A program made the position numbers and the translations under genes. The notes below the pieces were generated by a model, which was not told the DNA's origin, ran no database searches, and worked only from the letters and a program-made list of their open reading frames with translations. This document shows positions 125-11,181 of a stretch of 11,181 nucleotides of DNA, piece by piece. How positions within the stretch are numbered: the stretch's first letter is position 1; every line of letters starts with the position of its first letter. This DNA comes from a virus, in the UHGV virus genome UHGV-0130923; one strand, written 5' to 3'.

Positions 125-202
125 TTGCTGGTTTTTACACTTAATCTTTTGATAATAAAGAATAAGTTTATCTGGTGCTTTCACTGAATTTTCCTCGTTA
201 TC

Positions 203-2328: not shown

Positions 2329-2678
2329 AGCATTCTAACTCCCTTAACTTATTTATTACTTTCTCTTTATGATAAGAGAGGGGAATGACTTGGTAAAGTG
2401 ATTTGTCATTAATAATGATAATCCTTGCGATAAATATTTCTGCAAGTTATTTACCTGTTTGTTGCTATCTTGTTAAGCGTTGGGTGTGGTTTATGTTTGG
2501 AGCGACTTTATTTAATCGTGATTTTATGGATTTATATTTATATCCTGTAAGATAAGCGCATGTTAGTTCAGGAGTAGTGTCAGATAAAATTATTCGGAGT
2601 AGAACTACCTTTTCTGTTTATTGCCAGTATTTACATAGCAATGCGCCGTAGTTACTCACATCACGGCGCTGATACTAA

Positions 2679-2981
2679 TTATTCAGATTCTTTGGCTTTA
2701 CGCCGCTGGAGTTCTTCACGAGCGACGGCTACGAGTTGCCCGATTTCCTCCGCTGCCTTGATGCCGATTTGTTCGACCTTAGCTAAGGCATCCAGTGAAG
2801 ACACGAGGGGATTTTCTCCGCTTCCTTCTGCCTGGCGGCGGGCGATCTCACCGCGCATGGCGGTTACTATGAATCCGGCGTTGCTTTCGCCGTCCAGTTT
2901 TACGGATTCCATGCCCTCCATAACATCGTGGGGAACCCTGATCGTTGTCATTTGCGATTTTGCATTTTTGTATACAGACAT
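2679..2981 (-). CDS. YlcI/YnfO-family (DUF3950-like) small protein, candidate island regulator
   Basis: 100-aa ORF. The segment TTIRVPHDVMEGMESVKLDGESNAGFIVTAMRGEIARR parallels the pattern of E. coli prophage YlcI (IRFPNQMIEQINIALDQKGSGNFSAWVIEACRRR) as recalled from memory. It is transcribed divergently from the plus-strand operon. Confidence 0.55.
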   Translation of the reverse strand: MSVYKNAKSQMTTIRVPHDVMEGMESVKLDGESNAGFIVTAMRGEIARRQAEGSGENPLVSSLDALAKVEQIGIKAAEEIGQLVAVAREELQRRKAKESE

Positions 2982-3001
2982 AGTTAATCACCAATTTGTT
3001 A

Positions 3002-3104
3002 TGTGTATATCACTATACACAAAAGTGAGATATAAAAACACTTGCAATGTATATCACCACAATATAATGTATATCTCACATTATGGTCGCTATGTATCTC
3101 ACAA
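3002..3104. promoter_or_regulatory. Divergent promoter/operator region with repeated TGTATATC(A/T)CAC-like sites
   Basis: Inverted repeat TGTGTATA-TCAC-TATACACA at 3002-3021, with related copies at 3026-3035 (inverted), 3048-3059, 3068-3081 and 3092-3104, in the AT-rich gap between the two divergent genes. Confidence 0.5.
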
Positions 3105-3189
3105 TGATCGATTCATAAAAACGACGAAACCCGGCAGTGCGCGAACACTAACCGGGCTTCTAACCAAACCGTTAAACGAGGTAACGATT

Positions 3190-3555
3190 ATGGCTGGAAC
3201 ACAGCATACCCAAACTCACCCTAAATTTATATACACCTTTGTGGCACTACACCACGACCGCATGGCAGATGGAGCAACTACGGTACATGTTGCCGCTGAC
3301 ACGCTGGTTGATGCCCGCAAGATGGTTAAGGAGATGGGCTATACTGCGGCTTTCTGGAAAGGGCGTGAAGAAAACACGCTGTTTATTCAGAAATGCGAAA
3401 ACAATTTCATCTGGCGTTTTATCGCCCTGAGCACCGCACAACCACGCGTAATACACATCGTGGCCACCAGCGAACAGGAAGCCCGCCAGCAATCCCCGGC
3501 TGGTTGCGTGATGGTATTCGCCGCCCGTATTCGTCAGGAGGTATGCCGTGCTTAA
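3190..3555 (+). CDS. Hypothetical protein, first gene of the plus-strand early operon
   Basis: ATG at 3190 preceded by GAGGT at 3179-3183. This is the in-frame internal start of track ORF 2641..3555, whose upstream part overlaps the opposite-strand gene and the operator region. Confidence 0.5.
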   Translation: MAGTQHTQTHPKFIYTFVALHHDRMADGATTVHVAADTLVDARKMVKEMGYTAAFWKGREENTLFIQKCENNFIWRFIALSTAQPRVIHIVATSEQEARQQSPAGCVMVFAARIRQEVCRA

Positions 3556-6110: not shown

Positions 6111-6120
6111 TTTTAGACAA

Positions 6121-6353
6121 AAGCCCTCTACCTCCTCTACCTAAAGAAAATAAATATATATTATTCAATATGATAAGCAGGTAGAGGGCTAGGTAGAAGG
6201 CAAATAAAAGCCCTCTACCTCCTCCACCATGATTAAGGTCATTTGTGAGGGGCGGGTAGAGGATGGGTAGAGGGCCCCGAAAGCCCTCTACCCATCTGAA
6301 AGCCGCGCCATTACTGACCTGAAAGATGATTAGGTAGAGAGGTAGAGGAGGTG
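6121..6353. repeat. Iteron array, putative island origin of replication
   Basis: About 11 copies of CCTCTACC / GGTAGAGG in alternating orientation (for example 6124-6141, 6180-6200, 6210-6227, 6254-6274, 6284-6293, 6333-6351), with an AT-rich stretch at 6142-6180, directly after the primase-helicase gene. Confidence 0.65.
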
Positions 6354-6396
6354 CACCACATTTCAAAACTTTTTAAACGAGGGGGTAAAAATAAAA

Positions 6397-8693: not shown

Positions 8694-9077
8694 ATGCAGA
8701 ATCTTTACAATGACCTTAAGCCAATTGCCGAAATGATGTATCCGGATCCAGCAGTAGAGGAATTAAAGGCTATTGCTGACAAAATGCGTTTAAGCGAGCG
8801 TCTTGTTGATATGAATCAGGTGATGGAACTTACAACCCTGAGTCGTCGTACACTGCTAAACCTTGAAGCACGTGGAGAGTTCCCCGAACGCGTGCAGGTT
8901 ACGGAAGGGCGTAAGGCCTGGTATTTAAGCGAAGTGATCGACTGGATAAACAATATTCCGCGCGCTTCTGAATATTGCCGCGTACCTGTCCCAAAAAAGC
9001 CAGATGCGGCGCTATGCCTCAAGATTGAGCGTGTACGCCGCAATGCGCGGGATGGTCGCTATAAGCTGATTGGTTGA
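8694..9077 (+). CDS. Second AlpA-family HTH protein, directly upstream of cos
   Basis: 127 aa with an AAAGGGGGA ribosome-binding site. Contains MELTTLSRRTLLNLEARGEFPERVQVTEGRKAWYLSEVIDWIN, an AlpA-like motif. Co-oriented and tightly spaced with the E and D homologs. Confidence 0.6.
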   Translation: MQNLYNDLKPIAEMMYPDPAVEELKAIADKMRLSERLVDMNQVMELTTLSRRTLLNLEARGEFPERVQVTEGRKAWYLSEVIDWINNIPRASEYCRVPVPKKPDAALCLKIERVRRNARDGRYKLIG

Positions 9078-9103: not shown

Positions 9104-9167
9104 GGGTCCTTTCCGGCGATCCGACAGGTTACGGGGCGGCGACCTCGCGGGTTTTCGCTATTTATGA
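9104..9167. other. Lambda-type cos site (cosQ-side sequence, cosN GGGCGGCGACCT at 9134-9145, first cosB element)
   Basis: GGGTCCTTTCCGGCGATCCGACAGGTTACG-GGGCGGCGACCT-CGCGGGTTTTCGCTATTTATGA matches the lambda genome ends as I recall them (right end ...CCGACAGGTTACG, left end GGGCGGCGACCTCGCGGGTTTTCGCTATTTATGA...). Sequence after 9167 no longer matches lambda cosB. A Nu1-like gene follows ~150 bp downstream, as in lambda. Confidence 0.8.
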
Positions 9168-9293
9168 GCATTTTTAGGGGACTGGTGGTGGTTTTGTTGT
9201 TCGCTATATCTGTATGAATAATAAGAGAAAAACACAATCAACACACCAACCTGAAACAGTAATTAAGTTGTGGTATCAATGAAATTGCACCTG

Positions 9294-9821
9294 ATGAACA
9301 AAAAAAACATGGCAAAAAGTTGCCGTGTAAGCGCCACTGCGTTCGATAAGTGGGGAGTGATTCCCGTCGAGCGTAAGGGCCGCGAGGCGTTTTATGATGT
9401 CGCCAGTGTAATAGATAATCGGGTTAACAATGCAATCAGCCAGATTACAAACGAAACGGGCGAGATTGATGATGATGAACTCCTACGAGTCAGGATCAGA
9501 TTGCTGACAGCACAGGCAGAGGCGCAGGAGCTTAAAAACGAGCGCGAACGCGGCGACGTTATTGATACAGCGTTTTGTATATACGTGCTTTCAAAACTGG
9601 CGAGTCAGATTTCTTCAATCATGGACAGCCTGCCGCTTGCCATGACAAGGAAGTTTCCCGACATGAAGCCGTCTATGCTGGATGGACTGAAAAAAGAAGT
9701 TATCAGAGCCTGTAACGCATGCGCAAAACTTGACGAAAACATACCGCTGATGCTGTCCGATTATCTGATGGAAACTGCCGGAAACGTACCGGATAAGTTG
9801 CAGCTGAATAAAGATAAGTAA
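9294..9821 (+). CDS. Nu1-like terminase small subunit
   Basis: LTAQAEAQELKNERERGDVIDTAFCIYVLSKLASQISSIMDSLPLAMTRKFP...LDENIPLMLSDYLMETAG parallels lambda Nu1 LTRAQADAQELKNARDSAEVVETAFCTFVLSRIAGEIASILDGLPLSVQRRFP...LDELIPGLLSEYIEQSG. Start chosen at ATG 9294 (MNKKNM...) by analogy with Nu1 MEVNKKQ; ATG 9279 and GTG 9270 are alternatives. Confidence 0.75.
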   Translation: MNKKNMAKSCRVSATAFDKWGVIPVERKGREAFYDVASVIDNRVNNAISQITNETGEIDDDELLRVRIRLLTAQAEAQELKNERERGDVIDTAFCIYVLSKLASQISSIMDSLPLAMTRKFPDMKPSMLDGLKKEVIRACNACAKLDENIPLMLSDYLMETAGNVPDKLQLNKDK

Positions 9822-9832
9822 CGTAGTACGCT

Positions 9833-10114
9833 ATGACTGAATCCGAAATACTGCGATTAATCCGCCGTGCTTGTGGAATCAGCAAGCAGCATGACGAACA
9901 GGCCACGCAGCCGGACAGCGTGATCGCCGAAAATTACGCGCGTGTTGTTGCTGATGTGATGCGCCGTGATGGTATTGAGCTTAACGGCGTGGATATGCGC
10001 GACATACGGATCAGATTCCTTGAGTTGCTGGCATACCGTCGCCGTTCTCAACAACGAAGGGAGAGCGCGAAAAACACTTATCAGTGGAAGAAGCCGGAAC
10101 GGTTGCGGCGGTAG
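9833..10114 (+). CDS. Hypothetical Arg-rich small protein, possibly a vestigial terminase large subunit (gpA) N-terminal fragment
   Basis: 93-aa ORF immediately after the Nu1-like gene, where gpA begins in lambda. Weak resemblance of SEILRLIRRACGIS...AENYA to gpA N-terminus SQVNRLRHFVRAGLRS...ADANYY; the remainder is Arg-rich. Weak ribosome-binding site. Confidence 0.3.
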   Translation: MTESEILRLIRRACGISKQHDEQATQPDSVIAENYARVVADVMRRDGIELNGVDMRDIRIRFLELLAYRRRSQQRRESAKNTYQWKKPERLRR

Positions 10115-10744
10115 ATTCCTGATATTCAGGAAAACCACGAATCCGGGGGTTTTACTGGCGCGGTGTACACGGTGGAACGTATAGCGTTACCTGACTTATT
10201 GCATTGTAAAAAGTTGAAAGGCACGGCCTGTAAGATGGGATGTTGTGAGTAGTTTAAAGCTACCCGCAAATTCTTTCGTTGTGCTGGCACAGGCGGTTAA
10301 ACCGTCGGTAACTGGATAATCCCCACTGGGGGAAAAGCTGGCTACATCCCTCACATCTGAGGACTGATAACGCAAAATTGCGTTGGCTGGCAGAGTGCAA
10401 ATTTGCACGATGGCCTAACCCATTGATTCTTTCGAAAACCCCCATTGGGGGAGAACGGGGGAATAAACCTGACTCATTGATTTTTCCACAATCCTTAATT
10501 TGAGGAAGCTGGATAGTTGCACTACCCAAAAAGTGCAGTACCCACATAGCTGCTTAATAGCGTTTATTTTTTCCGCACACCTCAAATCTGAGAAGGCCGG
10601 AATGATGACATGGCAGGATTATGATTCCTTGATTTCAAGGAGTCCTCCAGTGTGAAAATGAAATTATCTGGGCTGGTGGGTGAGTTGCTGATCTGCAACT
10701 CGGCTATGAAACTTAATAATCGAACAGCATGTAAATTCATTTCT

Positions 10745-10769
10745 GTGTATTGCAGCATGTATTGCAACA
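10745..10769. promoter_or_regulatory. attR arm-type repeats (putative integrase arm-binding sites)
   Basis: TGTGTATTGCAGC (10745-10757) and ATGTATTGCAAC (10758-10769), the same motif family as at 205-241 in the left end. Confidence 0.5.
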
Positions 10770-10842
10770 TAGTCATTCTGGTAGAGATTATGCTCTATTT
10801 TTCCTCTTATATCATTCACATACTTACGTCATTGACTCATGT

Positions 10843-10852
10843 AACCCAAGCA
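10843..10852. other. attR core: right copy of the 10-bp direct repeat AACCCAAGCA
   Basis: Identical to 84-93; the capsid reading frame resumes immediately (P-K-H-E-V-N-P-Q). Confidence 0.75.
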
Positions 10853-11181
10853 TGAGGTGAATCCGCAGATGACCCTGCGTCGCCTGCCGGATGAAGATCC
10901 GCAGAATCTGGCGGACCCGGCTTACCGCCGCCGTCGCATCATCATGCAGAACATGCGTGACGAAGAGCTGGCCATTGCTCAGGTCGAAGAGATGCAGGCA
11001 GTTTCTGCCGTGCTTAAGGGCAAATACACCATGACCGGTGAAGCCTTTGATCCGGTTGAGGTGGATATGGGGCGCAGTGCGGCGAACAACATCACACAGT
11101 CCGGTGGCACGGAGTGGAGCAAGCGCGACAAGTCCACGTATGACCCGACCGACGATATCGAAGCCTACGCGCTGAACGCCA
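10845..11181 (+). CDS. E: Lambda E-like major capsid protein, distal fragment of the helper prophage gene (runs off the window end)
   Basis: Frame from 10845 reads PKHEVNPQMTLRRLPDEDPQNLADPAYRRRRIIMQNMRDEELAIAQVEEMQAVSAVLKGKYTMTGEAFDPVEVDMGRSAANNITQSGGTEWSKRDKSTYDPTDDIEAYALNA, which continues lambda gpE from residue ~80 as I recall it. An in-frame TAA at 10842-10844 immediately precedes it. Confidence 0.8.

Follow-up and report, generated by a model that had tools for sequence, protein, structure and literature searches.

We analysed UHGV virus genome UHGV-0130923, an 11,181-nucleotide stretch of DNA (the window), with attention to its right end at positions 10115-10744, where an earlier annotation made without database searches (the sequence-only reading) had noticed several palindromes. 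The window is a satellite island that interrupts gene E, which encodes the major capsid protein of a lambdoid prophage, and runs in the same orientation as that gene (Table 1). Pfam identifies genes for an integrase, AlpA, a D5_N/DUF5906 (D5-type) primase and a Nu1-type small terminase; a second AlpA-like gene is present, and capsid and decoration genes are annotated. The gene order, with an inward-facing tyrosine integrase and AlpA, a primase/replication zone, and a late zone with captured capsid genes, is that of the helper-embedded phage-inducible chromosomal islands (PICIs), described together with a doubled attP motif by Tommasini, Mageeney and Williams (2023; PMC10111431). The published arm motif, tgTGTATTGCantgTGTATTGCa, lies 81 bp upstream of the attP centre (PMC10111431), and in our island a doubled TGTATTGC motif occurs at the published positions, ~81 bp upstream and ~132 bp downstream of that centre. 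The two E-gene halves, the gene order and the arm doublet thus identify the island as a helper-embedded PICI of the cap_E-site type (PMC10111431). The same island occurs in FDAARGOS_1296, with IS66 inside the primase gene and an internal stop in the helper portal gene.

The region under study is the right-end non-coding spacer between the last gene of the late operon, orf93, and attR. It starts after the orf93 stop codon TAG (10112-10114) and extends to 10842, rather than to 10744. The outer ~250 bp (about 10600-10842) are the attP arm, and the arm sites anticipated near attR are indeed there, as the TGTATTGCA doublet published for this satellite type (PMC10111431), which is separate from the palindromes. 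The region is neither cos nor ori, because both lie elsewhere in the window (Table 1). A cos site was rejected given the exact cosN upstream of the terminase gene, 10115-10860 having no match to it at three mismatches or fewer; and an ori or second cis-replication site was rejected given the clustering of the iterons after the primase gene, a single GGTAGAG (10781-10787; by eye) being all that lies near attR. The absence of a convincing open reading frame (ORF) was borne out by Pfam and PHROGs searches, in which no ORF of the region has a match. In the longest minus-strand ORF, of 95 aa, three residues differ in ~30 aligned with its counterpart in loci L012 and L015, and these changes, read against the DNA alignment, are non-synonymous only. 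A hidden gene was rejected on both grounds.

Short palindromes are about five times commoner here than in shuffled sequence. With a stem of at least 5 and a loop of at most 4, we count 15 hits (~9 distinct) in 10115-10744, versus 3.3 ± 2.0 in 1000 dinucleotide shuffles (P<0.001), and 0-5 hits in 630-bp windows elsewhere in the sequence, away from the region. All palindromes and repeats of the sequence-only reading exist, at its coordinates or within one base of them, with two corrections. The supposed two copies of CCCCA(C/T)TGGGGG are both present, but the second is 13 nt long and thus a different word; and the TGCA(C/G)TACCCA repeat is real, but begins at 10518, not 10517. Four palindromes, AACGCAAAATTGCGTT, CCTCACATCTGAGG, TCCTTGATTTCAAGGA and GAGTTGCTGATCTGCAACTC, had escaped that reading.

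A palindrome-plus-IHF module and its arrays

Aligning relatives of the region, denoted here by L numbers, reveals tandem units of 51-54 bp whose palindromes differ from unit to unit (CCTGCATTGCAGG, TCCTCAAATTGAGGA, CCCCCAATGGGGG, CGCAATTTTGCG, CCCATTTTTGGG, CAGCCGTTGGCTG, TTCGCCGCTGGCGAA and others). Read on the minus strand, the module consists of a perfect palindrome of variable sequence, 8-11 nt (mostly 10), and the integration host factor (IHF) consensus WATCAR-N4-TTR. The palindromes of the region are members, mostly eroded here, of a co-oriented array of such ~50-bp modules. Under a strict definition, namely, a perfect palindrome (stem at least 5) followed on the same strand, after 8-12 nt, by WATCAR-N4-TTR, module M1 qualifies, module M2 fails by one base per half, and all other modules of the window are decayed; one strict module is thus observed, versus 0.03 expected from the shuffled window. 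The same search gave no module in the neighbouring E. coli and prophage DNA (36 kb), and exactly one in 10.7 kb of phage HK022, inside the roi gene. The earlier suggestion of binding sites for regulators or host factors fits what M1 displays: a perfect IHF consensus 10 nt from a perfect palindrome, a combination that is conserved as a module in 100 fetched loci and inside phage rha/roi genes.

The relatives together yielded 238 modules, which fall into 97 distinct contexts and show 36 different palindrome strings (about a dozen core types) and gaps of 8-12 nt, mostly 10, bearing in mind that the counts are biased for loci L116-L185, which were retrieved with module patterns. The arrays comprise one to six co-oriented modules of different types, with spacing peaks at 54 and 48 bp. 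The gene orf93 is carried by 83 of 100 module-bearing loci, which are satellites, and in all but one of these 83 there are opposite-strand modules at most 1.5 kb downstream of it. The orf93 stop codon is TAA in most of the sister islands, where it doubles as the TTA of an intact first IHF consensus, with a palindrome of one of several types 10 nt away, so that orf93 and the array look like a fixed pair. The orf93 product (9833-10114) corresponds to phrog_1561, of unassigned function; a tblastn comparison with 50,697 phage records gave no match. The antiterminator gene Q of a PerC-type PICI near dinD (L002:12001-12382 and 13340) has modules on both sides, on the strand opposite to Q.

Conservation at the M1 position was assessed in loci picked via a neighbouring pattern that lacks the palindrome. 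First, the IHF consensus is invariant in 13 of 13 distinct sequences, while its W and N4 positions and the spacer vary. Second, over ten distinct versions of this segment, 95% of cells are paired, compared with 75% in shuffles (0/500); slid controls score 32-47%. Third, two-sided changes occur in three of six pairs. Dyad symmetry at this position therefore outlasts complete sequence replacement.

Varying stems with conserved pairing are also what structure-only elements would show, and the modules could be RNA hairpins, i.e. terminators, insulators or 3'-end stabilisers that end the late operon (plus strand) or stop leftward transcription short of attP/int or the flanking genes. The array does start at the stop codon of the last late gene, near an A-tract/hairpin/T-tract at 10131-10153; modules with spacer TTTTCGAAAG read on the minus strand as a hairpin followed by UUUU; and the units of perC islands follow immediately downstream of perC, a gene of the minus strand. 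We nevertheless judge this explanation improbable. The T-run is found in some spacer types only, being missing from ATTGTGGAAG, TTATCGGGAA and CCGTCGGGAA; no minus-strand gene lies to the right in the window; fold z-scores are modest; and the invariant IHF consensus at a fixed distance goes unexplained. Moreover, a scan of 9800-11000 returned two terminator-like sites versus 0.8 expected, one of them inside the orf93 coding sequence, and 10408-10425 as the sole match within the region, M1 (minus strand) and 10131-10153 fitting loosely. Taken by itself, 10131-10153 is, from its anatomy, likely an intrinsic terminator of the late operon; a stricter scan did not call it. This hairpin, AAAAACCAC-GAATnn-GTGGTTTTT (also at L003:1501-1560, L006:4452 and L007:5021), is found at non-coding ends of satellites and in the coding sequence of HK620 hkbK, and is thus a second cis-like element inside a Bro-network gene.

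The distribution of the region among genomes is uneven. The whole 771 bp were found in just 5 of 5426 complete E. coli genomes; 10128-10508 recurs at ~97% identity in many islands; the core 10369-10440 recurs more widely still; and some part of the region is present in 545 genomes. Sister satellites reside in a prophage portal gene, beside clpS, beside thiM and near dinD. Because these insertion sites differ, the conserved part is not tied to one integrase. This bears on whether the palindromes and IHF site form an extended attP arm, that is, intasome accessory sites for integration and excision. The region adjoins attR, IHF is a usual cofactor of tyrosine integrases, and the sole other exact WATCAANNNNTTR match in the window (142-154) belongs to the attL arm, flanked by the att core on one side and the arm doublet on the other. 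However, M1 lies ~425 bp from the crossover, compared with ~81 bp for the published arm motif, the modules are shared by islands with different integrases and targets (E gene, portal gene, clpS, thiM and dinD), and they occur inside phage genes too, which together make an attP role very unlikely.

Origin of the modules in pRha genes

Three patches of the region match coding sequences of the Bro network, namely, hkbK of phage HK620, a P1-type antirepressor gene and roi (10464-10515, minus strand; the first two in Table 1). The module segment itself is homologous to Phage_pRha genes, with significant blastn matches, as well as tblastn matches, to roi. The internal site of HK022 roi has the same architecture and belongs to the same sequence family as the satellite units, which read CCTGCATTGCAGG, 10 nt, AATCAATGGGTTA, where HK022 reads CTGCATTGCAG, 11 nt, AATCAATGATTTA. 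Among 80 roi genes retrieved by protein similarity, 79 have CCTCAAATTGAGG and the IHF consensus at the same codons. The other palindrome types are carried by roi genes of Shiga toxin phages and by classical rha genes: CCCCCAATGGGGG modules lie within roi-like genes, encoding pRha and ANT domains, and AACGCAATTTTGCGTT modules within classical rha genes, encoding pRha and ORF11CD3 domains, both at the same place in the pRha domain. As for the units of our window, homologues of M1 lie inside the roi-like genes of L122, L126, L130, L132 and L133, M2 is 85% identical to the roi coding segment PQIEDCGRINGLG, and palindrome AACGCAAAATTGCGTT is also found within the classical rha genes of L149, L153 and L181. 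By sequence similarity, each module type is homologous to one short segment in a different pRha allele, roi or rha.

The palindrome type tracks the version of the conserved 'RH..V' helix encoded by the gene that holds it, as KRHDNVKRTIE goes with CCTCA, SRHDKVKQSIE with CCCCC, SRHSNVKVSID with CTGCA, and KRHxDVLRA with ACGCA. Phage roi and rha genes bear one module each, in the coding sequence and on the sense strand, whereas arrays are confined to satellites, where one to six modules of different types stand in non-coding DNA; our island has no pRha gene. Stand-alone non-coding CCCCCAATGGGGG modules with the same flanks are present in two Xenorhabdus genomes, in one of them near a Q-like gene, and in Xanthomonas hortorum a CCCCCAATGGGGG module marks where the 5' end of a truncated roi-like frame joins unrelated GC-rich DNA (module positions L267:480-515, L268:137-172 and L266:933-968). 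The Rha-family gene of the L002 island has no such module.

HK022 Roi reportedly binds a site within its own gene beside an IHF site, and the rha genes of phi80 and P22 are said to depend on IHF. The titles of Henthorn and Friedman (1995) and of Clerget and Boccard (1996, J Bacteriol 178:4077) name Rha and Roi as inhibitors of phage growth in IHF mutants, and, among papers citing these titles, one calls Roi DNA-binding and another calls the Rha domain a winged helix-turn-helix.

The roi patch also raises the matter of a small regulatory RNA gene, proposed in the sequence-only reading, which might encode an immunity RNA like C4, CI or IsrK, or an antisense RNA to helper roi/ant mRNAs. A plus-strand transcript of 10464-10515 would be ~85% complementary to roi mRNA, and immunity RNAs are known within Bro-network genes of satellites. 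Yet Rfam searches (C4, IsrK and others) gave no relevant match, whether the window was searched at E≤1 or the region at E≤10, no promoter-like site lies in the right place and none is paired with a terminator, whole-region folds have z-scores of just -2.4 and -1.7, and the conserved features are dyad symmetry and an IHF consensus, not one extended fold. The proposal thus found no backing, and we regard it as extremely unlikely. Elsewhere in the window, at 3123-3195 (minus strand), a weak SymR-like Rfam match (35 bits against a gathering score of 61; E=0.0011) falls inside the ORF at 2641-3555, part of which corresponds to a gene that is annotated in L001 as Icd-like; an RNA of the immunity type, belonging to the Bro zone, is one possibility.

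Remaining features of the spacer

The features of the window are collected in Table 1, and several call for comment. The 7-3-7 inverted repeat looks like a by-product of the fusion between the mutated first module and the KilA-N-like patch. In L006, palindrome TTGCATTGCAA comes after an intact rha-type module. The degenerate module at 10309-10333 was read by comparison with type-b modules, CCCATTTTTGGG..TATCAACCAGTTA. The perfect 14-bp palindrome GTGCAAATTTGCAC aligns with rha codons (CGTGCAA...ATTGCAAAC) with internal deletions, and resembles a deletion derivative of these codons, hence probably a by-product. Its being a module with its own IHF site was rejected, as it has zero instances 7-13 nt from an IHF consensus in IMG/VR.

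Overlapping it, TGGCTGGCAGAGTGCA (10384-10399) shows GG-N10-GC spacing, and its bases are nearly invariant in core-bearing loci, which were chosen with an overlapping pattern. A sigma-54 promoter at this site, considered by eye, was discarded: it has three mismatches where the consensus is moderately conserved, an activator gene is lacking nearby, and the IHF sites are on the wrong side. Towards attR, the perfect form of GAGTTGCTGATCTGCAACTC has 54 strand-wise matches (the word is self-complementary) among other fetched satellite loci, at variable distance to the integrase motif.

Table 1. Coordinates of the features of the window, ordered from the island-wide landmarks to the right-end spacer.
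Feature	Position	Strand	Remarks
Capsid gene E halves	1-93; 10843-11181		E nt 153-245 and E nt 236-574, respectively; sequence match
att identity block AACCCAAGCA, 10 bp	84-93; 10843-10852	+	Common to both E-gene matches; second copy is attR, where E resumes
Satellite ori	6111-6360		Iterons GGTAGAGG/CCTCTACC, at least 12 copies in both orientations, around an AT-rich stretch directly after the primase gene
cosN, exact lambda GGGCGGCGACCT	9134-9145		Between the second AlpA-like helix-turn-helix gene (8694-9077) and Nu1-type terS (9270-9821)
orf93 stop and decayed first-module IHF site TATCAGGAATCTA	10112-10132		IHF site on minus strand, one mismatch
7-3-7 inverted repeat TTCCTGATATTCAGGAA (TTCCTGA-TAT-TCAGGAA)	10116-10132		Junction of mutated first module with KilA-N-like patch
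KilA-N patch	10128-10186	+	88% identical to an internal coding segment of HK620 hkbK; frameshifted here
A-tract/hairpin/T-tract	10131-10153		Within KilA-N patch; common to hkbK
TTGCATTGTAA	10199-10209		Degenerate copy of palindrome TTGCATTGCAA
P1-type antirepressor patch	10238-10275	-	95% identical to coding sequence, motif KNLRVALNYSQ; gene relic
Degenerate module	10309-10333	-	Palindrome TCCCCACTGGGGGA abutting TAACTGGATAA, a truncated IHF-type site; spacer lost
CCCCACTGGGGG	10321-10332		Within palindrome TCCCCACTGGGGGA (10320-10333)
Palindrome CCTCACATCTGAGG	10349-10362		Without IHF partner; kept in L002, L006, L007, L013, L018
rha-type palindrome AACGCAAAATTGCGTT	10369-10384	-	IHF half deleted here; present as TATCAGCAAGTTA in L006, L010, L011
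Perfect 14-bp palindrome GTGCAAATTTGCAC	10395-10408		Stand-alone
Module M1, intact	10416-10451	-	IHF AATCAATGGGTTA (10416-10428), 10-nt spacer, palindrome CCCCCATTGGGGG (10439-10451)
Module M2, slightly decayed	10470-10506	-	IHF-like AATCAATGAGTCA (10470-10482, TTR to TCA), 9-nt spacer, palindrome TCCTTAATTTGAGGA (10492-10506, one mismatch)
Direct repeat TGCACTACCCA / TGCAGTACCCA	10518-10528 / 10534-10544	+	Among aligned loci, only in islands using the E-gene site
Degenerate third unit with CCTCAAATCTGAG	10568-10605	-	nhmmer E=0.045
Palindrome TCCTTGATTTCAAGGA	10626-10641		
Near-perfect 20-bp palindrome GAGTTGCTGATCTGCAACTC	10682-10701		Central GATC
attP arm-type doubled motif TGTATTGCAgcaTGTATTGCA (TGTATTGCA doublet)	10746-10766	+	Second copy at ~206-245

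Possible roles of the array

Our tentative preference, held with somewhat less than even confidence, is that the modules act at the DNA level, as an array on which IHF and phage proteins of the Rha/Roi type dock. IHF would bind its consensus and bend the DNA, and a dimeric winged-helix protein of the Rha/Roi type, supplied by a co-resident or incoming phage, would bind the neighbouring palindrome. The array could then serve as a platform of multiple specificities, for docking or titration, between the late operon of the satellite and attP/int. Any activity in this window would be weak, because only M1 is intact and M2 nearly so.

Several observations weigh against such a role. First, no pRha ORF was found by Pfam or PHROGs in the region or the rest of the island, and two helper prophages that were inspected have no annotated pRha or roi gene. 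The modules of the island are accordingly not operators of the HK022 Roi type in the strict sense, which would lie inside the gene of their binder, and on the same two observations, together with the lack of a module in the Rha-family gene of the L002 island, the island's or helper's own Rha was discarded as the partner. Second, the covariation of palindrome and helix extends over four lineages only, and the counts are subject to the retrieval bias noted above. Third, the decay of most modules in the window argues against strong selection here. Fourth, conservation is a non-uniform mosaic: compared with L006, the region is 81% identical, and the 4-fold sites of the neighbouring genes 85-99%. 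Compared with L010 and L013, the region is 92-98% identical and the adjacent orf93 just 86-87%.

These same facts feed the principal competing explanation, unlikely in our view but far from negligible, in which the region is a graveyard of Bro-network gene fragments (KilA-N, P1-type antirepressor and rha/roi) left by cycles of capture and deletion at the variable right end of the satellite. The segment that joins palindrome and IHF site would be a hotspot for recombination or template switching in pRha genes, and the scars of just this segment would accumulate and shuffle. Each of the three patches comes from a different phage gene, and they lie out of frame and in both orientations; most modules of the window are decayed; identity is a mosaic that in places falls below that of the neighbours' neutral sites; the 14-bp palindrome has the look of a junction left by a deletion within rha codons; and the Xanthomonas palindrome coincides exactly with the boundary between the roi-like frame and unrelated GC-rich DNA. 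The late zones of PICIs have been described as capturing genes and then losing them, and Bro-network genes as swapping domains (PMC10111431). However, neutral decay makes no new perfect palindromes 10 nt from an intact IHF consensus in dozens of lineages, the units have been cut to the same ~50 bp, share one orientation and are tied to the orf93 stop, and in Xenorhabdus the module is kept as stand-alone non-coding DNA.

Arrangements with which the array may be compared are known from other systems. Extragenic units of this kind, often at the 3' ends of operons, include the RIP and RIB units of E. coli bacterial interspersed mosaic elements (BIMEs), in which repetitive extragenic palindromic (REP) sequences flank an IHF site, and the Correia elements of Neisseria. 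The units described here differ in that they derive from a segment of a phage gene, are found specifically in satellites and phages, and vary in palindrome while the distance to the IHF site stays at 10 nt; their identity with REP or BIME elements was rejected, there being no match to a REP-like consensus in the region. Centromere arrays of the F sopC type are made up of tandem units of ~43-54 bp, each with an internal palindrome. In F sopC there is one palindrome for one protein, whereas here every unit differs and no partition genes are present; a centromere-like array was discarded for the first of these reasons. In lambda cosB, with its IHF site I1, and in attP, with its arm and H sites, protein sites are interleaved with IHF bends in a higher-order complex. 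The likeness lies in the combination of specific sites with IHF bends, and the difference in that the satellite cosN is 1.3 kb away and the array is independent of integrase type. The R elements of lambda cosB are TerS sites (PMC6739421).

With respect to the PICIs of PMC10111431, our island belongs among them, but the modules are not specific to that integrase clade. The words noncoding, intergenic, palindrome and hairpin are absent from the main text of that paper, and both occurrences of 'terminator' there refer to regions other than this one. Searching the literature for the sequences gave no match. The satellite type and its arm motif are already published; the arrays of different pRha-derived modules in satellites appear to be undescribed.

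The kinship of the modules with different pRha alleles suggests that satellites may gather binding sites for phage regulators. Extending this, it is tempting to speculate, as a doubtful generalisation, that enterobacterial satellites keep combinatorial arrays of operator and IHF sites, copied from the internal sites of many Rha and Roi genes, as decoys or sensors of multiple specificities. Such an array would titrate or detect, together with IHF, the regulators of whichever phage is active, and, if so, excision of the satellite, its late transcription and its interference would be coupled to the identity of the phage.

Known cross-talk between satellites and helpers is described as trans-regulatory, in that products encoded by one partner act on the other (PMC10111431). 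If our reading is correct, a cis-acting array that collects sites for a whole family of phage regulators would let a satellite sense or blunt phages by another route, and would give a concrete role both to the poorly understood Rha/Roi family and to the extended 'empty' stretches at the right ends of PICIs. Should the arrays be no more than recombination scars, they would still mark a precise ~50-bp hotspot in pRha genes, helping to explain the domain swapping of the Bro network.

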